Below are positions 2 through 15,000 of a DNA stretch of 64,000 bases, piece by piece (within the stretch, counting starts at the first letter, position 1; every line of letters starts with the position of its first letter). The position numbers and the translations under genes were made by a program. This DNA comes from Desulfosoma sp. (GTDB lineage Bacteria > Desulfobacterota > Syntrophobacteria > Syntrophobacterales > DSM-9756), in NCBI GenBank assembly GCA_037481835.1, contig JBBFKW010000010.1, positions 64,001-128,000 on the forward strand, given 5' to 3'. A model generated the notes under the pieces. The model did no database searches and was not told the origin of the DNA. It saw nothing but the letters and a program-made list of their open reading frames with translations.

Positions 2-1663
2 CTCGACCGCACGGCCGAGTCGCTTGAGGTGTGGGGGATTTCCGTGCGCCTCGTGGATGCGCTGTGTGAACGGGAAACCTTCGCGGAGGAAATGTCGGGA
101 GCTGCACTTGCCGATGTGGAGCGGCTCGTCATCGGCGCCTGTTCGCCCTTTTTGATCGGCGACCTTCTGGAGCAGGCTCTTTGCGATCGATCCCATCTGA
201 GGTGGACTTTGGTGGACATCAAGGACGCCGGGGATGCCCTCGCTTTAAGCGGTATCCTTAAAAGTCGCCTTCATACCCTGGATCCGTCCTTTTCCACAGC
301 GTGCAGATACCCTTCCGCCGGTCTGCCCCACGAGGCCATCCGTCCGCTCGGCGCCAAGGCCCCTCGGCGGGTTTTGGTCATCGGAGGGGGTGTTGGGGGC
401 TGTCAGGCGGCGCTGGACCTTGCGGGCATGGGCATTCCCGTAACCCTCGTGGAAGCCGAAGACTCCCTCGGGGGAAACATGGCCCGGCTGGACAAAACTT
501 TTCCCACCCTGGATTGTTCCATTTGCATCCTAGGGCCCCGGCTGGTGGACGCCGCCTCGCACCCCCATATCACGGTGCTTGCATCGAGCCGGGTGAAGAG
601 AATCAGCGGCCGGCCGGGGCATTTTCTGGCGGAAATCGAACACCGCCCCCGCTACGTGGACATGAATCTCTGTTCCGGGTGCGGGGCGTGCAGCGACGTG
701 TGCCCGGTGATCGTCCCCAGCGCCTGGAACGCCGGACTCCGGCCGCGCAAAGCCATAGGAATCGTGTTCGAACAGGCCGTGCCGCTGCGGGCGGCCATCC
801 GAAAGGACTTTTGCATTGATTGTGGCCTGTGCGAAAAGGCGTGCGAAAGGAAGGCCATCCGCCTGGCCGAGGAGCCTCAGGTGAGCCGCCTGCACACGGC
901 AGCGGTGGTCCTTGCCGAAGGGGCGCGCCTTTTCAAGGCATCGCGGCTCGGCGCCTACGGCTACGGCCGCTTTCCTGAAGTCCTCACCAACTTGGAATTC
1001 GAACGGCTCGTGTGCGCCACGGGTCCCACTCAGGGAGCCCTCATCACCCCCAGCGGGTCGAGACCTCGATCTGTGGCCTTCATTCAATGCGCCGGGTCCC
1101 GCAACCGCCGCTTCCTTCCCTACTGCTCCATCACATGCTGCACGGCGAGCATCAAGGAAGCCATCCTGGTCCTGGAGCACGAACCGGAAGCCGCCGTCAC
1201 GATTTTCTTCAACGACATTCGAACGCCTGGAAAGAGTTTTGAAGGTCTTTTTCTTCGGGCGCGCGAGAGGGGTGTGCGTTTCGTCAAGGCCCTGCCCGAC
1301 CGCGTGGAACGGGCCAAAGACGGCAAGCGACTTTCGGTGCATTATCGGGCGGCGTCCCATCCCGGAGTCCAAAGTCTGGAAGCCGATCTCGTGGTTCTCG
1401 CCGTAGGGGTGGAAGCCCCCAACGCGGACCACCGGTGGGTCTTGCGCGCACCGCCCCGGCGGGACCGTTACGGCTTCTACGAGGAAGCCTACTATTGGGG
1501 CGGCCAGATGCACAGCACCGTGCCCGGGATATTCCTCATCGGCGGGTGTCACGGCCCCCGGGATATCACCCAGACGGTGACCGAAGCCTCGGCCGCGGCG
1601 GCTCACGTGGCCAAGTGGCTTCGGCGCGTTTCGGCATCCTCGTCGGAGGGCTCGGGACCATGA
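2..1663 (+). CDS. HdrA-like FAD/[4Fe-4S] oxidoreductase (heterodisulfide reductase subunit A family), 5'-truncated by window edge
   Basis: Frame is open from the window start. HdrA motifs: 'LVIGACSP', Rossmann 'VIGGGVGG', 'LDKTFPTLDCSICIL', two CxxCxxCxxxC ferredoxin motifs, 'IQCAGSR...YCSITCC', 'GGCHGPRDI'. Stop TGA overlaps the next ATG (ATGA). Confidence 0.9.
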   Translation, partial: LDRTAESLEVWGISVRLVDALCERETFAEEMSGAALADVERLVIGACSPFLIGDLLEQALCDRSHLRWTLVDIKDAGDALALSGILKSRLHTLDPSFSTACRYPSAGLPHEAIRPLGAKAPRRVLVIGGGVGGCQAALDLAGMGIPVTLVEAEDSLGGNMARLDKTFPTLDCSICILGPRLVDAASHPHITVLASSRVKRISGRPGHFLAEIEHRPRYVDMNLCSGCGACSDVCPVIVPSAWNAGLRPRKAIGIVFEQAVPLRAAIRKDFCIDCGLCEKACERKAIRLAEEPQVSRLHTAAVVLAEGARLFKASRLGAYGYGRFPEVLTNLEFERLVCATGPTQGALITPSGSRPRSVAFIQCAGSRNRRFLPYCSITCCTASIKEAILVLEHEPEAAVTIFFNDIRTPGKSFEGLFLRARERGVRFVKALPDRVERAKDGKRLSVHYRAASHPGVQSLEADLVVLAVGVEAPNADHRWVLRAPPRRDRYGFYEEAYYWGGQMHSTVPGIFLIGGCHGPRDITQTVTEASAAAAHVAKWLRRVSASSSEGSGP

Positions 1664-2934
1664 CGCAAAAGACGTTCACGTCCCTTGTGTGCTGCGGCTG
1701 CAGCTGCCTGTGCGATGACATCGACGCCGTCATGGAGGGCGACCGGGTCGTGGAAACGGCCAACGCATGCCGATGGGGAGCGGCCCGATTCCTGGGTTTG
1801 AAGAAGTTCAGCAGGGCGCTCGTTCGAGCCCGTGTCCAAAGCAGCCGGAGGCGTCCGGATGCTCGGGGACGGCTTGATGTCTCCTGTGCGGAAGCCGTCT
1901 CGGTGTGCCGAGATTACCTGTTTTCCGCACGGCGCGTGGTGGCCTACGGGCTGGGCCAAATGTCCATCGAAGCCCTACAGATTCTCATGGCGGGCCTCCG
2001 GGATCGTGAAACCATGTGGATTCCCTCGGACGGTCCCCTTCTTCAAGCCTTCGTGGAAACCTACAGCCGGCATGGCCCGGCCCTCACCAACCTGGAATGC
2101 GTCCGAAACCAGGCTGACCTGGTGGTCTTCTGGGGCGCCAATCCTGTGCGAAGCACGCCGCGCCTTTTGAGCCGCTACGCCCTTTTCCCCCGAGGGCGCT
2201 TTACCGAAAGGGGCGCCGAGGACCGCAAGGCCTGGACTGTGGATATCCAGACGACGGAAATGGAACGGGTCACTCAAATGGTGACCATCCCTCCGGATCA
2301 GGAAAAGGCCTGTATCCAGGCGCTGCGCCGAGCTTACCGCGGCCTGCCCCTGGAAGCCCCGCCCGGAGTTTCCGCTAAAACCTTGTCCATGCTGCTTGGA
2401 GACGTGGAAAAGAGTCGATACCGCGTTTTTTTCTTCGGCCGAGGCCCCCTGTATCACGCGGGCGGGGATGCCGTGCTGGACGAACTGGCGTCCTGGGTCA
2501 CGGAACTGGGCGCCTCCGCCCCAACCTTCCTCATGCCTGTGCCGGGAGACTTCAACAGCATGGGGTTTCTCCAGGTTTTCCTGAGTGGCGGCGGCCTGGC
2601 CGATCCGCTGTGGCGCGTGCAGGGGGATGTGCACGGCTGGGAGCCCCGAACCGGAGATGTTCTGCTCGCCTTGTCCGGCGATTGTTTCTGGTTTTTGACG
2701 GATGATCAAAAGCGCGCCGTCCGTAAGCACCGGATTCCCGTCGTGGCTCTATCGGCCCACGAAACCATGACGACGGCGGAAGCGGACGTGGTTGCGGCCG
2801 TGGGGCTCCAAGGACTGGACGTCACGGGCCGGGCGTCACGGCTGGACGGCGTCACCCTTTGTGCGGAAAAGTTGTGGGACGGGACAGCGGCATCCGACGC
2901 CGCCGTCGTCCGGGATTTGTTCGAACTTATGTGA
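1660..2934 (+). CDS. Formylmethanofuran dehydrogenase subunit B-like protein (FwdB/FhcB family), catalytic motif degenerate
   Basis: ATG 1660 with GGAGG upstream. N-terminal 'CCGCSCLCDDI...NACRWG', 'NLECVRNQADLVVFWGANP', 'PRLLSRY..FPRGRF' and C-terminal 'GRASRLDGV' match FwdB family motifs. Confidence 0.85.
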   Translation: MTQKTFTSLVCCGCSCLCDDIDAVMEGDRVVETANACRWGAARFLGLKKFSRALVRARVQSSRRRPDARGRLDVSCAEAVSVCRDYLFSARRVVAYGLGQMSIEALQILMAGLRDRETMWIPSDGPLLQAFVETYSRHGPALTNLECVRNQADLVVFWGANPVRSTPRLLSRYALFPRGRFTERGAEDRKAWTVDIQTTEMERVTQMVTIPPDQEKACIQALRRAYRGLPLEAPPGVSAKTLSMLLGDVEKSRYRVFFFGRGPLYHAGGDAVLDELASWVTELGASAPTFLMPVPGDFNSMGFLQVFLSGGGLADPLWRVQGDVHGWEPRTGDVLLALSGDCFWFLTDDQKRAVRKHRIPVVALSAHETMTTAEADVVAAVGLQGLDVTGRASRLDGVTLCAEKLWDGTAASDAAVVRDLFELM

Positions 2935-2947
2935 GCCTTAGGACCCC

Positions 2948-4342
2948 ATGCGGCCGAAAACCCTGCTCCTTCAATCCGGCACCGTTTTCGACCCCGTCAC
3001 GGGGTGCGAGGGCACGAGGCGGGATATCGCCGTGTGCGGGGAGACGATCGTCTCCATGGAACACGTTTCGGACGTGGACGAGATCGTGGACGTCTCCGGC
3101 ATGCTGGTCACCGCGGCGGCTGTGGACTGCGCCGCCCACGTGGCCTTTCCCGGGGTGTGGGGTCTTCGCGCCGCGGGGCTCTTTCCGGATGCGCAAACCA
3201 TCGCGCGCCGCTACGCCGAAAGAGGATTCGCCCACGTGCACGAAAGTTGGGCACCCCTTGTGGACTGGGGAACGGTGCAGGCCGAGTGGGACCGGATCCC
3301 CGGCCCGGACGTCTCCGTCGGGTTGTTGCTCCCCCTCTATGATCTGACGGCGGCCATGGACGCTCAGGACGTGACGGTCGCCCACAGCGTCCTGTGGCAT
3401 TTTCACGCCCTCTTGGGAATTCGCGGGTTCTACCTTCCCGAGCCGCGCGTGCGCTTTCGCGATGAAGTGTACAAACACCGGGAAAAAGCGGCAGAGGAGG
3501 TGCTGCCGTTTCTGAAAGCGGCGTGGGAAGGACTGCCGGGGCCCATGGTCCTCCCAGCCCGGTCCCTCAACGCGGAAGATCGTGCCGCTTTGCCTTCCGG
3601 AGCGCACGTGCAACGCGTTACGGACTTGAACGACAGGGAAGCCGGGGGGTCTCTTTCGGCTTTGCTCGAAACGGTGCGTCCGGATCTGAGTGCAGACTTG
3701 GGACTTTCATGGCCGGAAAAGAGCGTGGAGCTCACCTGGGCGGCGCCCGCCGGCGGCATCGGAGGTCGCCTCTGGGATGTGGGGGCTTTTCTCATGCTCA
3801 AGGCGGCACCGGTTCCCAACGAGGATTTTCGCAACGACGCGGAGACGGTCCAAGTCCTGTCGCAGGGGATCGCCGAAGGCTGGGCCTTGTCGTGCCGGCA
3901 TGCCAATCTGGCTCTTGTGGAGGACTGGGAAGGGCTGATTCGGGCATTCTTGGAGGTGTGGACCGTTCGGCAATGGCTCCTGACGACCCGCGCCCATGCC
4001 GCGAAGGCGCTGGGTTTTTCGGATCGAGGCCATCTTGGGCCGGGAGCCCGGGCCAACCTGGCCCTATACCCGGAACCGGCGGACGAGACGCCTGCAGCGT
4101 GGGCGAAAGCCTTGAGCCGATGCCTCCGCCTCTACGTGGGCGGGCGCGAAGTTTACGACGCCCGGCTAGGCGGTTTGAAGCCCTCGGCCCGCATCGGTCG
4201 CGCGCGCGAAACGGCGAAAGCGGCCGCCGATTTGGGGGTGCTCGCCCTTTTTTCGGACGGATTGAGTCTTCGGCCGGAAAGCCTCCGGCGCCTTGCGCCC
4301 AGGGTTGAAGGAGCCATAGGGCATGATTCGCAAGATTCTTGA
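2948..4342 (+). CDS. Formylmethanofuran dehydrogenase subunit A-like amidohydrolase-fold protein, metal ligands degenerate
   Basis: N-terminal 'GTVFDPVTGCEGTRRDIAV...VDVSGMLV' and C-terminal 'TTRAHAAKALGFSDRGHLGPGARANLALY' are FwdA/amidohydrolase signatures. It directly follows the fwdB-like gene. Confidence 0.75.
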   Translation: MRPKTLLLQSGTVFDPVTGCEGTRRDIAVCGETIVSMEHVSDVDEIVDVSGMLVTAAAVDCAAHVAFPGVWGLRAAGLFPDAQTIARRYAERGFAHVHESWAPLVDWGTVQAEWDRIPGPDVSVGLLLPLYDLTAAMDAQDVTVAHSVLWHFHALLGIRGFYLPEPRVRFRDEVYKHREKAAEEVLPFLKAAWEGLPGPMVLPARSLNAEDRAALPSGAHVQRVTDLNDREAGGSLSALLETVRPDLSADLGLSWPEKSVELTWAAPAGGIGGRLWDVGAFLMLKAAPVPNEDFRNDAETVQVLSQGIAEGWALSCRHANLALVEDWEGLIRAFLEVWTVRQWLLTTRAHAAKALGFSDRGHLGPGARANLALYPEPADETPAAWAKALSRCLRLYVGGREVYDARLGGLKPSARIGRARETAKAAADLGVLALFSDGLSLRPESLRRLAPRVEGAIGHDSQDS

Positions 4343-4772
4343 GCACCTGCCCAAAACGGACTGCGGGATGTGCGGGATGACCTGCGCCGATTTCGCAGGT
4401 TTTCTCCTTTCCGGAGACCTCAGCCCGCAGGACTGTCCCGTGCTTCAAGAGGATGCCTATGCGGCCCAGAGGGAGGCCCTGGCGACCCTTTTGGAAAGCC
4501 TCGCGGCGCGCGCCAAATCCGGCCATCTTCTGGATCCGGACAAGTGCACCGGATGCGGCATTTGCCTCATTGTGTGCGAATACCACGTGGCCAACGACCC
4601 TGAAAGCCGCCGCGGCAAAGGGCCGAACAAAGACGCCAAGGTGGTCCTTCGCATCGTCAACGGTCGGGTGGTTTTAGCCGATGAAACCCTGTGCACCCGA
4701 TTGTTGCAGGCGGCGGACAAATGCAGCAAATGCCAAGACCATTGCCCCACCCAGGCCATCGTGCTCATCTGA
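4323..4772 (+). CDS. FwdG-like ferredoxin with N-terminal RnfB-type Fe-S domain
   Basis: 'LPKTDCGMCGMTC...CP' Fe-S domain, then 'CTGCGICLIVC...GKGP...VLRIVNG...C..C..C...CP'. The GKGP insert is typical of FwdG. Confidence 0.75.
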   Translation: MIRKILEHLPKTDCGMCGMTCADFAGFLLSGDLSPQDCPVLQEDAYAAQREALATLLESLAARAKSGHLLDPDKCTGCGICLIVCEYHVANDPESRRGKGPNKDAKVVLRIVNGRVVLADETLCTRLLQAADKCSKCQDHCPTQAIVLI

Positions 4773-4787
4773 AAACTGGGAGCGAGT

Positions 4788-5273
4788 ATGGAAAACACCT
4801 CCTCCGAAATCCCTCTCCTTCAGGGCGATGCCGGTTTTGCCCAAGAAGTCGCGGCGGGTCCCGGCGGGGACACCCTGCCCTTGTGCTATCAGTGCGGGAC
4901 GTGCACGGGCTGCTGCCCTGTGGGGGCGGTGGATGAAGGGTTCAGCCCGGCCCTGATCATCCAGTGGATCCGGCTGGGACTTCGCGAGCGGGTTCTCGGC
5001 TCACCCAAGATATGGCTGTGCCTCCAATGCCATCGGTGTTCCTTCTCATGCCCGCAAGGCGTGCGATTTGCGGACATCAACGGCACGCTTCGACACATGG
5101 CCGTTCGGGAAGGGTTCGTGGATGCCGCGAAGGCGCAAGAGTTTGCGGCTCTGGAGAGGGATCTCAGCGCCTTGCGCTGCGCCGTTTTGGACCGGGCGAT
5201 GCGAGAGGCCCCCAACGCAGCGCTCTCCACGGAGGAACTCGTCCGGGAGGCCCTGAGGGACCTCCATGGCTAG
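4788..5273 (+). CDS. HdrC-like 2x[4Fe-4S] protein
   Basis: 'CYQCGTCTGCCP' and 'IWLCLQCHRCSFSCPQGV'. Confidence 0.85.
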   Translation: MENTSSEIPLLQGDAGFAQEVAAGPGGDTLPLCYQCGTCTGCCPVGAVDEGFSPALIIQWIRLGLRERVLGSPKIWLCLQCHRCSFSCPQGVRFADINGTLRHMAVREGFVDAAKAQEFAALERDLSALRCAVLDRAMREAPNAALSTEELVREALRDLHG

Positions 5274-8200
5274 CGGTCTTCGCCGAAAAGAAAGTCCGTG
5301 CGGGGACCCGCTGCAGACGATCGTCGTCGTGGGCGGTGGTGTGGCGGGAATGCACGCGGCCCTGCAGGCCGCCGACCTGGGACACCCCGTGGTGGTGCTG
5401 GAAAGGGACTTGGCCCTGGGCGGACACATGGCCCAGCTGGACAAGACCTACCCCACGCTGGACTGTTCCCTGTGCATCTTGTCGCCTCGGCTTCTCGCTT
5501 TCGGCCGGCACCCGAGGATTCGCGTGCTCGTGCGGGCTCGGCTGGAAAACGTGGAAGGCTGCGCCGGCTCCTTCGTCTGCACCGTCACCCAGGAACCCGC
5601 TTCCGTCAATGCGGAAAAGTGTATCGGGTGCGGCTCCTGCGCTCGAGCCTGCCCCGTGGAACAGCCCGATCCTTTCAATCTCGATCTCGGCCCGACCAAA
5701 GCCATCCGGACCCTCTACCCCCAGGCCTTTCCTTCCACGCACGCCATAGACCGCCGATACTGCCTGCATTTTCAGGGGAAAGACTGCCGCCGCTGCGCGG
5801 AAGTCTGCCCCACGGGGGCCATCGACTTTGAAGAGCGGCCTCACGTCATGGAACTGGAAGCAGGGGCCGTGATTCTGGCCGGAGGGTTCGATCTTCTCGA
5901 CCGTCGATTCATCGCTCATCCCCATTGGTTCGATTCCCCGCACGTGGTGACCAACCTGGCCTTGGAACGGTATCTCAGCGCCACGGGTCCCACACGCGGG
6001 GTGGTACATCCCCGGGGCCTGATCGCACCACCCCGGCATATCGTCTTCGCCCAGTGCGTGGGATCCAGGGATCCGGTCCACGGCGTCCCGTATTGTTCGG
6101 GGTATTGCTGCACCGCGGCTCTGAAACATATCCAACTCACGGCCGCTCTGCCCCACGTGGAGCGCATCACCCTGTGCGCCATGGACGTGCGGGCCCACGG
6201 CCGGGACTGCGAACCCTTCTTCCGCCGGGTGCAGGCCATGGACAAGGTCCGCCTCCTCCACGGCCGGGTGGCGGACATCGTCCCCTTGGGCACGGACCGC
6301 GGGGTGGAGGTTTTGGCGTCACACGGCGGCAAACCGCTGAGGATGGAAGCGGACCTGGTCGTCTTGGCCATGGGCATGCGCCCGTCCGCGGAGGCCCTTC
6401 GGATCGCCAAGGCTCTGGGACTGCAGACGGATCCCTTCGGGTTCGTTCGGATCAAGGAACATCACACGGTGCACACGTCCCGGGACGGGGTCTATGCCTG
6501 CGGGGCCTTCATGGGGCCCAAGAGTATCCCGTCCACGGTTCAGGAAGCCTGCGCGGCGGCCATCGCCGCCAGCGCCCGATTGACGATCCGGCCCGAAGCC
6601 TCCCTCAGCGATGTTCCCGCCACGGCTCCATCTCCCGCCCCCCAAGCCTCCGTCGCCAAAACTATCCAAGAACCCGACGGGCCCGCGCCGCGTGGGGCGT
6701 CCCAAACCGCCCTTCGGATCGGGGTCTTCGTCTGCCGGTGCGGCACGAACATCGCCGGGGTCATCGATACGGCCGAGGTGGCCCGATGGGTGAAAAAGCT
6801 TCCCGATGTGGCCTACGCCGCCGAAAATCTTTTTTCCTGTTCCACGGACGCCACCACCCGCATGGCCCGCATCATCCGGGAAAAGGGCCTGAACCGCATC
6901 GTCGTGGCGGCTTGTTCGCCGCGAAGCCATCTCCCGGTCTTTCAAGAGGTCTTGGCCAAGGCGGGGCTTCCCCCCGGATACATCCGCATGGTCAACATCC
7001 GGGAACAATGTTCCTGGGTGCATCCGGATAAACCCCACGAGGCCCTGGTGAAGGCCAAGGCGCTCCTCGCCGGCACCCTGGCCCATGTTCGCGCCGCCTG
7101 GGCTGCTCCCCCCATGGCCTTCCCCGTAACGCCGTCGGCCCTCGTGCTGGGAAGCAGCGTCGCAGCCCTGACGGCCGCCCTGCGCCTCGCGGACAACGGG
7201 ATTCGGGTTCTTGTGGCGGAATCCGGAGACACCTTCGGGGGGCGGCTGTCCCAAGCCTATTTCGGACGGCCGGAAGTGAACGTCAACCGGCTCTATCGCC
7301 ATTTCCTCAGCCGCATTCGAACCCAACCGCTCCTGCGCGTGCTCATGCACACCGAACTTGCAGACTGCCGGGGAAGCCTGGGACGTTTTCATGTGGAACT
7401 TCGGCAGCGGCGTCCAGGGGCTGCATCCGCCGCCGAGCGCATTGAAGAAACCGTAGGGGCCATCCTCATCGCCGTAGGGGCCGATGTCTGGAAACCGGAC
7501 AACCTCTACGGGTATGGGCACAGCCCCTTGGTGCTGACCCAAGCCGAACTCGCAACGGCGCTGGAACGCGGGACCGTGGATCTCGCCCGGGCCCGCACCG
7601 TTTTCATGATCCAGTGCGTGGGATCCCGAAACGACGAACGCCCCTACTGCAGCCGCTCATGCTGCCAGCAGGCCGTCTCCCATGCTTTGGAACTCAAGGA
7701 CCACTTCCCGCACCTTCAAATCACCATCGTCCATCGGGATATGCGCACCTACGGGCTGGCGGAAATCACTTATCAAAAAGCGCGGCAAGCGGGGATCCGG
7801 TTCCTGCGCTACGACGAAAAACAGCCGCCCCGGGTGGAACCCACCCGATTCGGTCGACGCTCCACCCTGGATATCCGGTGGGACGATCCCGACACCGGCG
7901 ATTTTTTCCACGAACGCGCCGATCTCCTGGTTTTGAGCACCGCGACGGTGCCCAGCCCGGAAAACCGGCACCTCGCCTCAATCCTTCGGGTGCCGCTCAG
8001 CGCCGATGGCTTTTTCTTGGAACGACACGTCAAGCTCGCCCCGGTGGAAACGGCCGTAGAGGGCATTTTCATCGCCGGTCAGTGCCATTCCCCGAAGACC
8101 ATCACAGAGGCCTTGGTCCAAGGCGATGCGGCGGCGGCCAAGATGCTGGCGGTCCTCCGACAAGGGAGCGTGCGCCGGGCCGCCTTCGTGGCGGTCATCG

Positions 8201-8412
8201 ATCCCGGCCGGTGTTCGCGATGCTTGAGCTGTGCAGCGGTCTGCCCCGCACAGGCCGTAACGGTTCCGGCAGTGGGGCCGCTCCGAGTGGACCCCGGGGC
8301 GTGCCAAGGCTGCGGCCTGTGCGCGGCCGAATGCCCCGCCCGAGCCATCGATGTGGCCGGAGCCGAAGAGGCCGGCTTACTCGGAGGGATGCCGTCCGTC
8401 TTTTGCGCCTGA
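5266..8412 (+). CDS. Large double-module HdrA-like flavo/Fe-S protein (1048 aa)
   Basis: Module 1: 'VVGGGVAG', 'DKTYPTLDCSLC', ferredoxin insert, 'QCVGSRD..YCSGYCC'. Module 2: 'IGVFVCRCGTNIAG', 'VAACSP', 'NIREQCSWVH', 'QCVGSR..YCSRSCC'. C-terminal 2x[4Fe-4S]. Confidence 0.9.
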   Translation: MASGLRRKESPCGDPLQTIVVVGGGVAGMHAALQAADLGHPVVVLERDLALGGHMAQLDKTYPTLDCSLCILSPRLLAFGRHPRIRVLVRARLENVEGCAGSFVCTVTQEPASVNAEKCIGCGSCARACPVEQPDPFNLDLGPTKAIRTLYPQAFPSTHAIDRRYCLHFQGKDCRRCAEVCPTGAIDFEERPHVMELEAGAVILAGGFDLLDRRFIAHPHWFDSPHVVTNLALERYLSATGPTRGVVHPRGLIAPPRHIVFAQCVGSRDPVHGVPYCSGYCCTAALKHIQLTAALPHVERITLCAMDVRAHGRDCEPFFRRVQAMDKVRLLHGRVADIVPLGTDRGVEVLASHGGKPLRMEADLVVLAMGMRPSAEALRIAKALGLQTDPFGFVRIKEHHTVHTSRDGVYACGAFMGPKSIPSTVQEACAAAIAASARLTIRPEASLSDVPATAPSPAPQASVAKTIQEPDGPAPRGASQTALRIGVFVCRCGTNIAGVIDTAEVARWVKKLPDVAYAAENLFSCSTDATTRMARIIREKGLNRIVVAACSPRSHLPVFQEVLAKAGLPPGYIRMVNIREQCSWVHPDKPHEALVKAKALLAGTLAHVRAAWAAPPMAFPVTPSALVLGSSVAALTAALRLADNGIRVLVAESGDTFGGRLSQAYFGRPEVNVNRLYRHFLSRIRTQPLLRVLMHTELADCRGSLGRFHVELRQRRPGAASAAERIEETVGAILIAVGADVWKPDNLYGYGHSPLVLTQAELATALERGTVDLARARTVFMIQCVGSRNDERPYCSRSCCQQAVSHALELKDHFPHLQITIVHRDMRTYGLAEITYQKARQAGIRFLRYDEKQPPRVEPTRFGRRSTLDIRWDDPDTGDFFHERADLLVLSTATVPSPENRHLASILRVPLSADGFFLERHVKLAPVETAVEGIFIAGQCHSPKTITEALVQGDAAAAKMLAVLRQGSVRRAAFVAVIDPGRCSRCLSCAAVCPAQAVTVPAVGPLRVDPGACQGCGLCAAECPARAIDVAGAEEAGLLGGMPSVFCA

Positions 8413-8451
8413 AGATACGGTTTGCACCAAAACGCATGCAAGGAGCCGACG

Positions 8452-9441
8452 ATGCAAACGGAAGCGCCGGAAAGAAATTTGGGACTGGATCTGGTTCGCG
8501 TGACGGAGGCCGCGGCGCTGGCCGCCGCGCGGTGGCTCGGCCGTGGGGACGGAAAAGCCGGAGACAAGGCGGCTGTGGATGCCATGCGGTTGAGCTTCAA
8601 TGCGGTGGATATCGACGGCCTCGTCGTCATCGGCGAAGGGGAAAAGGACAAGGCCCCCATGCTCTACAACGGGGAAAAACTCGGCACGGGACGCGGTCCC
8701 AAAGTGGACGTGGCCGTCGACCCCGTGGAAGGGACGCGCCTCTTGGCTTACGGCAGGCCCAACGCCATCTCCGTGGTGGCCATGGCCCCCCGAGGATCCA
8801 TGTACAACCCGGGCCCCGCCTTCTACATGAACAAGCTGGCGGTTCCGCCCCAGGCACGCGATGCCATCGATCTGGACGCCTCTCCCGAAGATAACCTCAA
8901 GAAGATCGCCAAAGCCCTGGGAAAGGACGTGGACGACCTCACCGTGTTCGTCCTGGACAAACCGCGCCACAAGGACCTCATCGCCCACATCCGAAAAGCC
9001 GGCGCCCGAATCCAGCTCCACACCGACGGCGACGTGGCGGGCGCGCTCATGGCCGTGTTGCCTGACACGAGCGTGGATGTCATGATGGGCACCGGCGGAA
9101 CGCCCGAAGGGGTTCTCGCGGCGGCGGCCATCAAGGTCGTGGGCGGCGAAATGCTGGGGCGCCTCGATCCTCAATCGGCCGCCGAACGGGAGGCGCTGCT
9201 CAAGGCCGGCTACGACCTGCACAGGGTGCTCTCTACCAACGACTTGGTGCGAAGCGACGACGTCTTCTTTGCGGCCACGGGCATCAGCGGGGGCGATTTC
9301 CTCCCGGGCGTGCGCTTCACAGGTCGGGGTGCCGTGACCCACTCCCTGGTCATGCGAGGAAAAACGGGCACGGTGCGCCGCATCGAGGCGTTCCATTCCT
9401 TCGCCCAGCTCATGCAAATCAGCGCCATCAGCTATGATTGA
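8452..9441 (+). CDS. glpX: Class II fructose-1,6-bisphosphatase
   Basis: 'LVRVTEAAAL', 'VIGEGEKDKAPML', 'DVAVDPVEGT', 'GTGGTPEGV', 'FAATGI'. AGGAG precedes ATG 8452. Confidence 0.95.
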   Translation: MQTEAPERNLGLDLVRVTEAAALAAARWLGRGDGKAGDKAAVDAMRLSFNAVDIDGLVVIGEGEKDKAPMLYNGEKLGTGRGPKVDVAVDPVEGTRLLAYGRPNAISVVAMAPRGSMYNPGPAFYMNKLAVPPQARDAIDLDASPEDNLKKIAKALGKDVDDLTVFVLDKPRHKDLIAHIRKAGARIQLHTDGDVAGALMAVLPDTSVDVMMGTGGTPEGVLAAAAIKVVGGEMLGRLDPQSAAEREALLKAGYDLHRVLSTNDLVRSDDVFFAATGISGGDFLPGVRFTGRGAVTHSLVMRGKTGTVRRIEAFHSFAQLMQISAISYD

Positions 9442-9510
9442 AATCCGCCGGATCCAAGGCCTTCGGCCGGAACAGAAGACGGGCGCCATGGATGCCGAAG
9501 GCCGGCCGGC

Positions 9511-11004
9511 TCAACGGAAAGGCCCGGCCGCGGACGACTCCGTTTCTTCCGCCGTCGCGGAGCGTTCCCGGCTTTTGGGCAAAGAAATGGTGAAGACCAC
9601 GTGGGGATCTTCCCGGGAGAATGTAAGCACCCCGCCCATGGTGCGAATCAGGCGGTAACACAAGGGCAGCCCGATGGTTTGACCGCCTTCGTCGAAAGGC
9701 AGAAACAGGGCTTCGGGCTGTGTCGGGATGGGTTTCCGACACGGGTTCTGAAACCGAATGAGGACGTGCTGGGCGCTGGCATAAGCCCGCACCACCAGCT
9801 CGTCCCCTTTGTGCATGGCCTGAATGGCGTTTCGGACCAAGTTGATGAACACCTGCAAGAGCCCATTGGCATCCACGGGCAACGGCCCAAGCCCGGGTTC
9901 CACTTCCAACCGACACCGCATGCCGCGCCGTTCCAGCTCCAAGCCCATGAGCTCCTTGCATCGGCCCAGAATCTCTTCCAGGCAATGCTCCCCCAGGGTG
10001 ATTTCCACAGGGGAAAGATAGTTTCGAATCCGATCCAAGATCCTTTCCAGCCTCCGGCACTCGTCCAGGATGATGGCCGCTTCGGAAGATTCCGGGTGTT
10101 GCATGTGCAGCCGCCGAGCAAACCCGCCGATGGCGACCAAAGGGTTTCGGATTTCATGAGCCACCTCGGCGGCCACGGCGCCCAAGGTTTTTAATTTTTC
10201 TTTCTGGACCAAAGCCTTTTCCAAAAGCACCCTGTCGGTGATGTCCACCGCGATGCCTTCCAAGTGGCGGGGTCTCCCGCCCCGAAACGGACTTGCCGGG
10301 ACGAAAGTTTTCACAAGACAATGAAGGACATGCCCTTCCCGATGCCTGAAACGGCACTCCAAGAAGCCGGCCTCGCAAAGCCCTTCGAAAACGTCCCGAA
10401 CGTGATCCCTCAGCCGAGCCCGATCCTCTTCCACGACTCGTTCGAGCAGCCACCCCTCCCGATCGACGACCTCGTCGGGCTCGTAGCCGAGAACGCTCCG
10501 AAAGGCTTGATTGACAAAGCCGAGGCCGAAATCTTTTCGCAACGAAAAAATCATCATCGGGGCATGCTGCACCAGGTCCGCATAGCGCTGCTCCGCCCTC
10601 CGGATGCGCTCCCGAAAGGCCTGGCGTTCCCGATGCCGGCGAATGCACATGAAGACGTCTTCGATGCTGAAGGGCTTTCGGATGAAATCGGCCACCCCCA
10701 CCTTAATGGCCTGAACGGCGTTGTCCAGGGTCCCGTAACCGGTCATGATGACCACGTCCCGATGGGGATCCTTGGCCTTGAGCCGGGCGGTCAGTTCCAG
10801 TCCCGTCATGCCCGGAAGTTCGATGTCGAGAAACGCCAGGGAAAAGGGTTCCGACTCGCAGAAGGCTAAAGCATCTCGGGGATGGGACGCCAGCAAAGGG
10901 CTGTAGCCTTCTTGCCGCAGCACTTCTCCCATGAGCTCCAAGACACCGGGGTCGTCGTCCACAACCAGGATTTGTTCCCCAGAGGAAAGGCCCTCGTCGT
11001 GCAT
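9511..11004 (-). CDS. Hybrid sensor histidine kinase (REC-PAS-HisKA-HATPase)
   Basis: N-terminal receiver ('ILVVDDD', 'LDIELPG'), PAS, H-box 'AHEIRNPL', N-box 'QVFINLVRNA'. GGAGG RBS. Confidence 0.9.
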   Translation of the reverse strand: MHDEGLSSGEQILVVDDDPGVLELMGEVLRQEGYSPLLASHPRDALAFCESEPFSLAFLDIELPGMTGLELTARLKAKDPHRDVVIMTGYGTLDNAVQAIKVGVADFIRKPFSIEDVFMCIRRHRERQAFRERIRRAEQRYADLVQHAPMMIFSLRKDFGLGFVNQAFRSVLGYEPDEVVDREGWLLERVVEEDRARLRDHVRDVFEGLCEAGFLECRFRHREGHVLHCLVKTFVPASPFRGGRPRHLEGIAVDITDRVLLEKALVQKEKLKTLGAVAAEVAHEIRNPLVAIGGFARRLHMQHPESSEAAIILDECRRLERILDRIRNYLSPVEITLGEHCLEEILGRCKELMGLELERRGMRCRLEVEPGLGPLPVDANGLLQVFINLVRNAIQAMHKGDELVVRAYASAQHVLIRFQNPCRKPIPTQPEALFLPFDEGGQTIGLPLCYRLIRTMGGVLTFSREDPHVVFTISLPKSRERSATAEETESSAAGPFR

Positions 11005-11142
11005 CGGTACCTCCTCATCCCCCGGACGAAAAATCGGGGGACTCTTTCGTCAAACAGGGCGGTGCCGCCAGATGGGTCTGTTAAATTCTTGACGAAAAGC
11101 GAAACAAAAAAAAGGGGGGCCGAGGATTTTTTGTGAATGCGC

Positions 11143-12012
11143 TCAAACTCGGTTGGTGAGGCTAACCCCAATGCAGATCAAGAGAGCGCCGACGATAAAG
11201 GACGGCTCCAGGCGTTCGCCCAAAAAGACCACGCCCATGAGCACGGCACTCAAGGGCACCAGGTTGATGAAAACCCCGGCCCTGGCGGGACCGATGGCTC
11301 GAATCCCTTCGTAATACCAGCGAAATCCCAAAAAAGACCCGAAAAAACCCAGGTAGAACAGGCTCGCCCACGCGGAAGCGCTGTAGGTGAAAAGGTGTTT
11401 CCAGACCCCTTCAATGCCTGCCGGAACGGCGAGAAGCAATGTCCCGACAAGGCAGGAATAGGCGACGGCCGCTTCCGGCGAGACGCTTTTCATGACCGTT
11501 TTGCCCACCAGGGAGTAAGCCACCCAGCTGGCCACACAGCCGAGGATCAGCCCATCGCCCACACCCAGACCGCCGTTCCACGCCGCGGCCGGATGTCCCT
11601 TGGAAATCACGATAACGGCACCGAAAACCGAAAGGAGAATGCCCCCGGCCCGCACCATCCCCAGGCTTTCCTTGTAAATGAGGGACGAAAAGAGGGCGAT
11701 CATGGCGGGGTTGCAGGCGATGATCAAAGAGGCACGACTTGCGGGAATGTGCTTGAGCCCTGAGAAGAAAAAGGCGTTATAGGAAAAAATTCCGGTCGCT
11801 CCCAAGACAAGGAACCACGCCCACTGGGAAAGGGAAAACGACGGCAGGGGGCTTCGGGTGAGCAGGAAGCCGAACAAAAACACGGACGCCCACACGAACC
11901 GAAGAAAGGCGGCCGAAAAGGGAGGCACTTCCAAGGCCAGCATCCTTCCCGCAATAAAGGTGCCTCCCCAGAAAAGGGCGGTCAGTGTCAGTTTGAGATA
12001 GGTCATGCCCAT
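11143..12012 (-). CDS. DMT/EamA family transporter
   Basis: About 10 hydrophobic segments; 'LFWGGTF', 'LRF', 'GVFINLVP', 'FLGERL'. Confidence 0.9.
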   Translation of the reverse strand: MGMTYLKLTLTALFWGGTFIAGRMLALEVPPFSAAFLRFVWASVFLFGFLLTRSPLPSFSLSQWAWFLVLGATGIFSYNAFFFSGLKHIPASRASLIIACNPAMIALFSSLIYKESLGMVRAGGILLSVFGAVIVISKGHPAAAWNGGLGVGDGLILGCVASWVAYSLVGKTVMKSVSPEAAVAYSCLVGTLLLAVPAGIEGVWKHLFTYSASAWASLFYLGFFGSFLGFRWYYEGIRAIGPARAGVFINLVPLSAVLMGVVFLGERLEPSFIVGALLICIGVSLTNRV

Positions 12013-12018
12013 GGAGGG

Positions 12019-15000
12019 TTAGGAGTCTTCCTCCAGGAGTCGGCGCACGAATTCCCTGTCCTCTTCGGTGACACTCTCCAAGTGGATACCCACCAGGTGG
12101 GATCCTCCGTGGCCGTTGGATCCATCGACCCGACACCACACGACCCGCCCTTTGAGGCGCCTGGCGTGTTCCTCTCCGGCCTTCACACTCAGGCAGACCG
12201 GCTCATCGGCTTCCATGGGCACACCGCAGCCGATGAGCAGCCCGTCTTCACTGAGGTTCTTCGCCCGTGCAGGAAACGACCCCCGGTTCGACTCCACGAT
12301 GACTTCCTGATCCACCCTCTTTCTTTCGCGTCGACGCCGTTCGCCGTGAGGCACCACCCGCTGAAGGGTTTCAGCGAGTTTTCGAATGGTGAAAGGTTTC
12401 GTCACCACGCCCGCGAAGCCGTAGTCGCTGTAGCGATCCACGATGTCGTCCTGGATGTAGCCGCTTGAGACGATGGCTTTCACGGCTGGATCCAGAGCGC
12501 GGATCCTTTCCAAAGTCTCTTTGGCGCCCATGCCTCCGCGGACGGTAAGATCCAGAATGGCGGCCGCATAAGGCCTTCCCTGCCTGAGAGCCCTTTCGTA
12601 CTTCTGCACGGCCTCCTGGCCGTCCGTCGCCACGTCCGTTTCATAACCCAGGTGAGTCAGCATCTCCTGGACGATGTTCCTGACGGACTCCTCGTCGTCC
12701 ATGACCAGAATGCGCCCACGGCCCGTGTGCAACGGCTTCGGGTCCTCCTGGACCTTCGGCGCCATGTGATCCGCCGCCGGAAGGTAGAGGTGGAAGACGG
12801 CCCCTTTGCCTTCCTCGGATTCCACGGTGACGCATCCGCCGTGGCGTTTCATGACCGAATAGACGATGGCCAGGCCCAACCCCGTGCCCTTCTCGCTGGT
12901 GCGCGTCTTCGTCGTGAAATAGGGATCGAAGATGCGGTCCAAGTACTCGGCCTTGATCCCCACCCCTTCGTCCCGGACCGCAATGTGCACATAGGAGCCC
13001 TCGGGCAGGGGGAGTCCCGAACCTTCGCGGATGTCACAGTTTTCCGCCGAAATCCACACCATCCCCCCCTTGGGCATGGCGTGCTTGGCGTTGATGAGCA
13101 GGTTGCTGATCACCTGATTCATCTGGGCCACATCCACATCCACCGGCTGGAGATCCTCGGGCAAATCAAACTGCACTTTGACATTGGACCCTGAAAGGAC
13201 GAACTCGGCCCCTTCCCGAAGAATCTGAGCGATGTCCGTGGTCTTCTTGATAGGGGTTCCGCCTTTGGACAAGCTCAGCAATTGCTGGGTGAGTTCCTTG
13301 GCGCGAAGCACCCCTTTTTCCGCCTCGGCGATCCTCGGCTCCAGTTTTTCCGGCTGATTCAAAAACATGCGGGCCAGGTTGAGGTTGCCCAGGATGCCCA
13401 TCATGATGTTGTTAAAGTCGTGGGCGATCCCGCCGGCCAAAATGCGGATGGACTCCAGCTTCCGGGCCCGAAGCACTTCCGTTTCCATCTTCTTCTGATA
13501 AGTGAGGTCGCGCAGCGCGAAGATGACGCCGACGGTTCCGCCATGGTGATCCACAATGGGTGCACCGCACAGGGCCACGGGCTTTAGGGTGCCGTTTCGG
13601 GCCGTCACCGCCAGCTCGTTCGGGTATTCCAAGGGCCCGCCCTTGTCCAGCACCAAGGAAACCGGATCCGGCAAGACTTCTTCCGACGGGGTCCGAACCA
13701 GCCGAAGGATATGACCGGCCGGCTGGCCCACGGCTTCAGCTTCGTCCCACCCGGTGAGCTTTGAAGCCCCTTCGTTGAAAAGAACCACGCGGCCCGCCGT
13801 GTCGGTGGCGATGACGGCTTCGGCGATACTCTTGAGCGTGACGGCCAGGCGTTCCTTTTCATCGCGATAGCGCGCCTGAGCTTCCCGGAGTTCCTTCATG
13901 GTGCGGCCGGCTTGGGCCAGGGCCGCGGAGAGCTTGTCGCTGAGATCCCGGGCTTTTTCGGCGAGCCGGATCTGACGCACACACGAGGACAAAACCCGGC
14001 CCAGCTTTTCGTAGACCGAAACGGGACGGACGGCGTCGGGCTCGTCGTGGTGGAGGGCTTCCTCATGGAGGAGGATCTCCCCGACAACCGCATCGTCCAC
14101 CAGAATGGGCACGGCGATGTAGGGGGGGTGATACTGCACGCGCCGATCCATGGAGGCCCCGCCCGCGGTGAAACTGTAGCGCTTTCGAAAGGCGCCCATG
14201 AGCTGGCGCAGTTCCGGCGGCATGCGGTTCAAGACGTCCCGGCCGTTGCCGCCGTCTTTCGATAAGGCGAAAGGACAGCACGGCTCACCCTCTTTCCACC
14301 AACATCCATGCATTGCCGGGCCCGCATCGTCCCACACATAGACGACGCCGTGGTCCACCCCAAGGATGTCGGCAACGCGCCGTGCCGCCTCTTCAAGCAT
14401 TGTGGGCAGGTCCGCGTTCGGCGCCAAGAACCCTTCCAGAGCATCCAAGGCCTCGCGGTCGCGTTCGCTCCCGCGCCATCGTTCCATGTGCAGGCCTTGG
14501 GACGCCATTCGGGACAAATGCTGATTGGCGCGCTGCAGCGCGCTGAAATAAAAAGACAGTTCGTCCTGTTCAAAGTCCAGAAGAGCCGTTCGGGCGCTGT
14601 AGCGCTTGGCGATCCGGCTCTTGACGTGATCGCAGTCCGAAAGGGTCAAGTGGAAATGGTCCAAGAGCGCGGGATCGGGACTCTGGAACAGTTCCACCGC
14701 CACGGCATCGGCCATGAGCTCGTGGGCCACATGGTCGGAGAGATTGACCAGCAGGCTGAGGTCTCTGATTTCCGGGTCCGGAATGTCCATGAGTTTCAGG
14801 ACATCCGGGCTGTGGTGATGCCACCACAGAGGAAAGGTCAGAATCGGGGGCAGCTCCCACTTTTCCGCAAGCCAGCGCGCCACCGTGGCATGGTCCACGC
14901 CCAAGAGATCCTGCTCCGCAGCCGCCATGGTCATGCCGCTCTCCCGGGCCGCCTTTTCCACCTCTTGATAGGTTTCGGCGGCGCATTCCATGAAAAGGAG

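Follow-up and report, generated by a model that had tools for sequence, protein, structure and literature searches.

Complexes based on HdrA of heterodisulfide reductase (Hdr) are the main route by which anaerobes obtain electrons of very low potential. To our knowledge, most HdrA paralogues of sulfate reducers have no assigned partner reaction. HdrA meets formylmethanofuran dehydrogenase (Fwd or Fmd) in the Fdh-Hdr-Fmd supercomplex of Methanospirillum hungatei (7BKB; Fdh, formate dehydrogenase) and in the Hdr/Fwd assemblies 9SFI and 9SW6, each of which we take, from the entry titles, to be one physical complex. Here we describe a cluster of eight co-oriented, tightly packed genes (g1-g8) in a Desulfosoma species, a heat-loving sulfate-reducing bacterium, that encodes HdrA-type proteins together with a FwdB-like (g4) and a FwdA-like protein (g5). 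Six of the genes open the 64,000-nucleotide stretch that was analysed (the window, C10:64001-128000, contig JBBFKW010000010.1), which belongs to a 3.63-Mb assembly (GCA_037481835.1) that is 99.4% complete. The cluster can be neither a formylmethanofuran dehydrogenase nor an Fhc hydrolase, because both large subunits have other residues in place of the catalytic ones throughout the family and FwdC, FwdD and Ftr are absent. We consider it reasonably likely that it encodes an HdrA-based complex in which the Fwd-derived pair serves as an iron-sulfur (Fe-S) relay or scaffold and not as a formylmethanofuran enzyme.

Several described systems share parts of this architecture, and they are summarised here as far as the accessible portions of the cited papers go. 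The catalytic residues of FwdB are Cys118, His119 and Arg288, and FwdD forms a fourth domain that is said to cap and coordinate the tungstopterin (PMC6926001). The same text describes Fhc of Methylorubrum extorquens (6S6Y), whose FhcB has lost Cys118 (to Ser), His119 and Arg288, has no FwdD and acts as a scaffold (PMC6926001). Type II HdrA-MvhD-FdhB-'Molybdop' clusters of Methanosarcinales and anaerobic methanotrophic archaea (ANME-2/3) include a Cys-less subunit of the molybdoenzyme family that is proposed to be non-catalytic and structural (PMC12054007). Tandem or fused HdrA proteins of ANME, and the Moorella MetFV-HdrABC-MvhD system, show a complementary distribution of the N-terminal Fe-S domain and a Cys197-type motif, which was taken to mean asymmetric heterodimers (PMC9012536). 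In Methanonezhaarchaeia strain YNP3N, a second FwdB with FwdF and FwdG is co-located with Hdr, and the authors propose formate oxidation (PMC12700198). Bacterial FwdB homologues, some of them without the Cys, were reported by Wells et al., and the available part of that paper does not discuss the present cluster (PMC10100899). Our literature search, whose coverage leaves out most subscription journals, found no description of this bacterial eight-gene system.

All six frames of the cluster that lie in the window (g3-g8, 2-8412, plus strand) are intact. Neighbouring genes overlap by 4 nt (g3/g4), 20 nt (g5/g6) and 8 nt (g7/g8) or are separated by 13 nt (g4/g5) and 15 nt (g6/g7). A sequence-only reading of the window had described contiguous genes with intact frames and with junctions that overlap or span at most 15 bp, and the six frames agree with it; the unit comprises eight genes and not six, because the flank adds a polyferredoxin gene (g1) and an HdrA-MvhD gene (g2) upstream of the window. 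That reading had also seen no hdrB, fwdC, fwdD or ftr, and the upstream flank of the operon, once retrieved and searched, holds none of them.

The FwdB-like protein g4 matches the model TIGR03129 over its full length with 206.7 bits, below the cut-off of 327.8, and aligns to solved FwdB chains (9sfi_Q, E 7.6e-44; 5t5i_B, E 8.9e-38). Its structure model has a mean predicted local distance difference test score (pLDDT) of 91, and its best fold match is FwdB (TMq 0.83-0.84). The active-site motif 'SVCHGP' of FwdB, with its Cys or selenocysteine (Sec) followed by His, reads 'IPSDGP' in g4, which places Ser-Asp at the catalytic pair, and the Arg and His of 'RGH' are replaced by Pro and Asp in 'PGD'. 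The N-terminal [4Fe-4S] cysteines C11, C14, C18 and C37 are kept and are invariant in all 68 aligned sequences (68 of 70 database homologues; P0013, a fragment, and P0070, a weak match, were omitted). The g4 family makes up 59 of these 68, and the catalytic Cys occurs in none of the 59: its column holds Ser in 17 members (P-S-[D/E]-G) and Ala or Gly in 42 (E-P-[A/G]-D-L). In the same family Asp or Glu stands in the His119 column; at 'RGH' the Arg position varies and the His has become Asp. The canonical 'SVCHGP ... RGH.N' is found in a single aligned homologue, P0061. The same FwdB-like substitutions are seen in open reading frames taken from the genome loci, after exclusion of rows that fall short of 380 aa or are truncated at a contig end (L012, L018, L038, L044, L048, L063, L064 and L081).

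The FwdA-like protein g5 matches TIGR03121 at its two ends only (64.6 bits; cut-off 392.75) and is about 100 residues shorter than FwdA, the difference lying within the barrel. A profile of 54 g5-family sequences matches FwdA 5t5i_A with E 4.6e-49, and hhalign of the 54 against five true archaeal FwdA sequences covers the whole length (probability 100, E 5e-45). The g5 model (pLDDT 88) has its best fold matches in FwdA and FhcA (TMq 0.69-0.73), and a protein-atlas look-up returned only 'amidohydrolase family' clusters, mostly of Thermodesulfobacteriota. With the zinc ligands of FwdA taken from the accessible text of PMC6926001, the HxH positions are A62 and H64 in this copy and R and Q in the family consensus, the carboxylated Lys is Tyr here and Arg in the family, and the catalytic Asp of 'TTDHPN' is Arg here and a small residue in the family. 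Of the ligands, the leading His of HxH, the Lys and the Asp have thus given way to other residues, and at most H64 and H220 are possible counterparts. The claim of the sequence-only reading that both large subunits are disarmed while the Fe-S motifs survive is confirmed by the alignment of g4 to solved FwdB, by the profile-profile alignment of g5 to true FwdA and by the invariant [4Fe-4S] cysteines of g4.

The rest of the genome does not supply the parts that the cluster lacks. Besides g4 and g5 there is no TIGR03129 or TIGR03121 match above or near the cut-off genome-wide; the best FwdC match reaches 20 bits, and the Ftr search gave no matches. A stand-alone FwdD was not found, as all nine Molydop_binding domains of the genome lie within open frames of 543-1085 aa. 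FwdD is also missing from the operon and from all 61 family loci described below, and it follows FwdB in eight archaeal loci. The earlier reading had pointed to the genome as the place to look for fwdC, fwdD, ftr and intact fwdA/B paralogues; none is there, and the MvhD domain that it had also named was found on g2. The enzymes of the methanofuran and tetrahydromethanopterin pathway are not in the genome. CCG domains of the HdrB type number 21 in the genome, none of them in or beside the operon, and PF02754 (HdrB, CCG) is found in none of g1-g8. Besides, the genome encodes dsrA above the cut-off (577 bits), a weaker match adjoining it that we read as dsrB, and the beta subunit of acetyl-CoA synthase (ACS). 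The genes of the cluster are listed in Table 1.

Table 1. Genes of the eight-gene cluster of Desulfosoma sp.; positions are those of the window.
Gene	Product	Position	Strand	Length (aa)	Remarks
g1	polyferredoxin	upstream of window, before g2		299	
g2	HdrA-beta with C-terminal MvhD/FlpD domain	upstream of window, before g3		697	PF02662, E 4e-46
g3	HdrA-like flavoprotein, alpha type	2..1663	+	581	start at C10:63918, 83 nt before window
g4	FwdB-like	1660..2934	+	424	TIGR03129 match
g5	FwdA-like, amidohydrolase fold	2948..4342	+	464	TIGR03121 match
g6	Fe-S protein	4323..4772	+	149	PF04060 'FeS' and 2x[4Fe-4S] ferredoxin
g7	HdrC-like / QmoC-N-terminus-like, soluble	4788..5273	+	161	two CxxCxxCxxxCP motifs
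g8	fusion of two HdrA modules	5266..8412	+	1048	

Scanning one genome per species brought up 192 relatives, from which 80 loci were kept: 61 of the family, 15 archaeal and four of a third bacterial type. Gene content was determined by tblastn with the eight cluster proteins, and most incomplete loci are short contigs. All eight genes are matched in 30 of the 61 family loci. The FwdA-like gene adjoins or follows the FwdB-like gene in 55 of the 61, g6 is present in 54, g7 in 50 and a g8-type gene in 49, the counts for g2, g3 and g8 being non-specific since HdrA paralogues cross-match. About 60 Thermodesulfobacteriota species, in Desulfosoma, Desulfacinum, Desulfobaccales and some other groups, carry the gene set with the same substitutions; the closest relatives by g4 are Desulfosoma species, with up to 85% identity, and the substitutions and gene order are common to dozens of species down to 33% identity. 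Two arrangements recur, g1-g2-g3-g4-g5-g6-g7-g8 in six loci, including those of Desulfosoma and of the cultured Desulfacinum hydrothermale DSM 13146 (L008), and g4-g5-g6-g7-g8-(DUF3795)-g1-g2 in 28 loci, mostly of Desulfobaccales, and the block g4-g8 is constant in both. The gene set thus proved to be shared across many species. The FwdB-like gene occurs in 12 of 122 species genomes of the host class, in all four of the genus and in one of 81 of the largest family. ACS beta (PF03598) occurs in 108 of the 122, so nearly everywhere that its co-occurrence with the FwdB-like gene has no power to link the cluster to the acetyl-CoA pathway.

In a tree of 86 FwdB-type sequences (a quick search, with a midpoint root for drawing only), the 55 rows of the family lie on one side of a branch with a Shimodaira-Hasegawa-like approximate likelihood ratio (SH-aLRT) support of 92, apart from true FwdB, from the Archaeoglobi/alkanotroph group and from the third bacterial type. 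In the comparison with the nearest species (L007), the ratio of nonsynonymous to synonymous substitution rates (dN/dS) of g4 is 0.14 and that of g5 0.20; the other six genes give 0.08-0.19 and glpX downstream 0.06. In the comparison with Desulfacinum, where dS is saturated, g4 has a ratio of 0.27 and g5 one of 0.24. Judged by these rates, the cluster is under purifying selection.

A DUF3795 protein of about 140 aa lies between the double-HdrA and polyferredoxin genes in 25 loci with the Desulfobaccales gene order (L011:14454-14873) and is not in the host operon, and in 11 loci a gene for a cyclophilin-type peptidyl-prolyl isomerase separates the FwdB-like gene from the FwdA-like one (L015:11297-11833); these two are the sole further recurrent genes across loci. 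In four metagenome-assembled loci (L018, L039, L048 and L063) the FwdB-like gene or its neighbours appear in pieces or as short frames.

Complex prediction for g4 with g5 gave a score of 0.90 (runs 0.91, 0.90 and 0.90) against 0.00 for the best control, with a partner pLDDT of at least 84; the runs had no less than 84% of contacts in common. The pair-binding mark is reached by 116 of 157 solved complexes and by 2 of 215 mismatched pairs, counts that are only a rough guide here because our own alignments served as input. The two proteins are predicted by this model to bind each other. The predicted interface includes residues 179-181 of g4, part of its most conserved motif RGRFTERG, whose loop is of low confidence in the g4 monomer model, and residues 170-175 of g5.

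The HdrA genes of the cluster have HdrA2 (NF040770) as best match, with scores below the NCBIfam equivalog cut-offs. Alignment of the four HdrA modules with one another, and of g8 with HdrA of M. wolfeii, separates them into two complementary types. The alpha type (g3 and the first half of g8) has an inserted 2x[4Fe-4S] ferredoxin domain and the motif DKT[F/Y]PT.DC and is without the C-terminal ferredoxin, and the beta type (g2 and the second half of g8) has an N-terminal Cys domain and a C-terminal ferredoxin domain and is without motif and insert. Accordingly, g3 carries an intact flavin adenine dinucleotide (FAD) motif GGGVGG, the DKTFPTLDCSIC motif (Cys197-type) and the inserted 2x[4Fe-4S] ferredoxin, with no ferredoxin at its C-terminus. 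In g8 the alpha module spans residues ~17-440, with the Cys197-type motif and the inserted ferredoxin domain, and the beta module residues ~484-1030, with the N-terminal Cys domain and a C-terminal 2x[4Fe-4S]. The FAD motif GGGxxG is present in g2, g3 and the first module of g8, and the second module reads GSSVAA. The HdrA hallmarks (FAD motif, Cys197-type motif and Fe-S domains) are thus present across the modules as sequence motifs, and the proteins encoded by the cluster could carry as many as four flavins and well above twenty Fe-S clusters. At g8 residues 625-640 (window 7140-7190), GSSVAA is found in the host, L007 and L008 only, which makes three of 39 aligned orthologues, and the other 36 keep GGGxAG; one flavin may have been lost specifically in this lineage.

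The HdrC-like g7 reaches 77 bits against TIGR03290 (HdrC) and 78 bits against the QmoC N-terminus, both below cut-offs, and covers only positions 2-95 of the 360-position QmoC model, without the membrane cytochrome b domain. The gene that had been called fwdG-like, g6, is not a recognisable FwdG; it combines the PF04060 Fe-S domain with a 2x[4Fe-4S] ferredoxin, is of the RnfB N-terminal type and resembles FwdG only in its place beside FwdB. Homologues of g6 stand directly before FwdB-like genes in 9 of the 15 archaeal loci. The polyferredoxin g1 is FwdF-like.

On this basis a mechanism can be proposed, in which the products of the cluster would come together as a single soluble complex with multiple flavins and iron-sulfur clusters. 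Two asymmetric pairs would be formed by the four HdrA modules, a split one of g2 with g3 and a fused one of the two halves of g8, and at least the alpha-type flavins would perform flavin-based electron bifurcation or confurcation; from its HdrA motifs the complex is probably electron-bifurcating. The FwdB-like/FwdA-like heterodimer would be wired to the polyferredoxin, g6 and g7 by way of the [4Fe-4S] cluster that it has kept, and it may serve as structural core and as electron relay or docking platform, as is thought for FhcB, NuoG and the archaeal 'Molybdop' subunit. Within the invariant block g4-g5-g6-g7-g8 the pair would occupy the usual place of HdrB after HdrC. For the donor, the precedent would be that the MvhD domain serves as docking site for a hydrogenase or a formate dehydrogenase.

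Some of our observations weigh against a purely relaying or structural role of the pair or against the single complex. The high pair score may reflect likeness to known structures and not binding of these copies, because FwdA-FwdB structures have already been solved, and we infer the presence of all eight products in one complex from gene order alone. The sequencing runs that match the locus are DNA only, several of them labelled as hot-spring or sediment metagenomes, with no RNA among them. The pterin may have been retained: g4 can be aligned to FwdB with hardly a gap and keeps the true-FwdB motifs FWGANP..PR..RY, VD, the N of 'H.N' and YR.DG, and the former active-site positions are non-randomly occupied by conserved acidic residues. 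A [4Fe-4S] cluster retained with no cofactor behind it needs another explanation. In g5 the central alignment to FwdA is of low confidence and the nearly invariant H220 may equal a zinc ligand, and the family has gained a new, nearly invariant H-x-H-E (H96, H98, E99), which fits a re-tooled site. These features can be read as a catalytic module that has been rebuilt, in which the FwdB-like subunit holds a Mo/W-bis-pterin (with Asp, Glu, Ser or no protein ligand) or another metal; we regard this as unlikely, though a serious candidate, and we give the same limited credence to its second part, in which this module and the FwdA-like subunit together convert some substrate and replace the heterodisulfide site of HdrB as one arm of the bifurcation. 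The new residues are conserved and not the product of drift (P-[SA]-[DE] for Cys-His, [DE]-F-N for His-x-N), the true-FwdB motifs are kept together with the electron-entry cluster, the FwdA-like family also conserves D121, S123 and D250, and, the flavins aside, none of the other subunits presents a site for a substrate. Molybdoenzyme lineages with an Asp ligand or with no protein ligand (AioA) are known, according to the accessible part of PMC10100899. Against such a module stand the replacement of Cys, His and Arg in g4 and the lack of FwdD, the pterin-capping domain in the text of PMC6926001 available to us, from every family locus and, as a stand-alone gene, from the genome. In that text the same Cys-to-Ser change in FhcB accompanies the loss of the cofactor (PMC6926001), and the comparable archaeal Cys-less subunit beside HdrA is judged non-catalytic in the available part of PMC12054007. 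That the pair is a wholly new enzyme, its pocket rebuilt with conserved acidic residues and the gained H-x-H-E, catalysing some redox or condensation reaction in place of the HdrB site, appears doubtful; if it were true, sulfate reducers with the acetyl-CoA pathway would possess a bacterial system of flavin-based electron bifurcation that is new.

The other two explanations fare much worse. The sequence-only reading had offered relaxed selection as its alternative, in which case the cluster would be what is left, in decay, of an archaeal Hdr-Fmd gene set acquired by transfer. Such decay would account for two Fwd-like subunits without catalytic residues, for the absence of HdrB, FwdC and FwdD, for the degenerate FAD motif in the second module of g8 in three of 39 aligned orthologues and for the interrupted frames in the few metagenome-assembled loci named above. 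In the host, however, all frames are intact, g4 and g5 have dN/dS values (0.14-0.20 against the nearest species, 0.24-0.27 against Desulfacinum) like those of the neighbouring Hdr genes, and the substitutions are fixed family-wide and not private to the host copy. We regard decay as very improbable and treat it as ruled out because of the low dN/dS, the family-wide fixed substitutions and the conserved gene order. A genuine formylmethanofuran dehydrogenase or Fhc-type hydrolase in a C1 pathway might be suggested by the homology of g4 and g5 to FwdB and FwdA in sequence and fold, and by the fact that one genome of the same order has a canonical cluster, fwdD-fwdB(Sec)-fwdA-ftr-fwdC. The FwdB of that canonical cluster is just 28% identical to g4, the NCBIfam scores of g4 and g5 are below cut-offs, both subunits lack the catalytic residues, and Ftr, FwdC and FwdD are missing from a genome of 99.4% completeness; this explanation is practically impossible. 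The favoured reading, an HdrA-based complex with the Fwd-derived pair as relay or scaffold, agrees with the earlier proposal of a repurposed Hdr-Fwd complex that fits neither Fwd nor Fhc, a proposal that the residues, the absent genes and the synteny over many species support. The cluster offers a defined, purifiable candidate, with four HdrA modules and no HdrB, joined to a Fwd-derived pair with a fixed exchange of catalytic residues. If the pair is catalytic, a new reaction would be coupled to electron bifurcation; if it is a scaffold, it would be a second, bacterial case beside the archaeal 'Molybdop' subunit proposed to be non-catalytic in the accessible part of PMC12054007.

The surroundings of the operon in the host genome (a PPDK-N-domain protein, FabH, glpX and sensor kinases) give no functional hint. 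The gene glpX (class II fructose-1,6-bisphosphatase, window 8422-9441, same strand) begins 9 nt after g8; it directly follows the operon also in the nearest Desulfosoma genome (L007) and not in Desulfacinum. A divergent gene upstream (minus strand, C10:57782-60700) encodes a protein of 972 aa in which only the N-terminal (ATP-grasp) domain of pyruvate phosphate dikinase (PPDK) is recognisable. A promoter scan of the locus found no sigma-70-like site, and a terminator scan found no outstanding intergenic terminator.

The scan of relatives also brought to light other Fwd-type loci. The canonical-looking cluster mentioned above (L096, G120:C1:767001-785000, ~7636-12743, in a complete genome of the same order) consists of fwdD, fwdB, fwdA, ftr and fwdC. 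Its FwdB has an intact 'RGH' and probably contains selenocysteine, because a TGA stands in frame exactly at the Cys118 position ('SSY*HGPG'), and FwdA (719 bits), Ftr (403) and FwdC (233) all score above cut-offs. Going by these sequences, it is seemingly a complete formylmethanofuran dehydrogenase with formyltransferase in a Syntrophobacterales-type bacterium. The third bacterial FwdB-like type is long-branched ('WLPWAFP', 'FWRADPL.THHRH'; L067 ~800-13400, L083 ~1000-6900 and L069), with the gene order g6-like, FwdB-like, FwdA-like and no HdrA genes. In L067 and L083 these genes lie directly after an ACS-beta-like gene (CdhC) and before a TetR regulator, and L067 also has a CooC-like ATPase. 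In L054, L078, L082, L086 and other archaeal loci (Archaeoglobi, Syntrophoarchaeum and related), a g6-type ferredoxin directly precedes a FwdB paralogue that keeps the Cys, has Leu or Gln in place of His119 and is followed by FwdD; genes for the beta subunit of carbon monoxide dehydrogenase/ACS and for CooC lie within a few kb. A paper taken up as a lead on an ACS-like variant (PMC13101534) proved unrelated. Apart from these, the genome of L077, that of an alkane-oxidising archaeon, encodes a short, 495-aa FwdA-like paralogue (L092, and L095:10338-11825, minus strand) that resembles the bacterial family ('...HVATYGL...') but keeps HxH; it lies at a contig end with its partners out of view.

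The chains of 7BKB, 9SFI and 9SW6 are sequence matches of g4, g5 and g8, and HdrA, an MvhD-type domain, HdrC, polyferredoxin and FmdB/FmdA-type subunits are common to them and to the bacterial cluster. In contrast to them, the cluster is without HdrB, FmdC, FmdD and Fdh and its host without Ftr, other residues stand in place of the FwdB triad and of the FwdA zinc ligands, and the four HdrA modules would make two asymmetric pairs. The wiring is thus like that of the methanogen Hdr-Fmd assemblies, whereas g4 and g5 lack every catalytic feature that would place them in Fwd. From the Qmo complex (QmoABC) the cluster differs in g7, which has no QmoC membrane cytochrome b domain.

The comparisons with the other systems hold for what the available parts of the cited papers describe. 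The YNP3N cluster has an apparently active FwdBD with HdrABC and no FwdA-like gene (PMC12700198). The alpha/beta complementarity that we see in our own alignment is like that of ANME and Moorella HdrA (PMC9012536), but the order of the g8 fusion is reversed, with the Cys197-type module first, the operon additionally encodes another pair that is not fused, and the partners are Fwd-like. The type II clusters likewise encode a Cys-less subunit of the molybdoenzyme family with HdrA; unlike g4, that subunit groups near FdhG/FhcB and not with FwdB, and those clusters are archaeal, with HdrBC and FdhB and no FwdA-like partner (PMC12054007). Fhc is like the present system in being bacterial and Fwd-derived, in the Cys-to-Ser change of its B subunit (as in g4) and in having no FwdD. 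It differs in several respects: at E 0.01 a sequence search with g4 does not find FhcB, which takes the 15th place among the fold matches, FhcB has lost the N-terminal [4Fe-4S] domain whose cysteines g4 keeps, and FhcA is active with all zinc ligands kept, whereas those of g5 are lost (PMC6926001). FhcC and FhcD (Ftr) belong to Fhc and are absent here, and the Hdr partners present here have no counterpart in Fhc. Beside active Fwd and hydrolytic Fhc, the cluster would represent a third, independent outcome of Fwd evolution, in which both large subunits are altered and the Fe-S entry cluster is kept.

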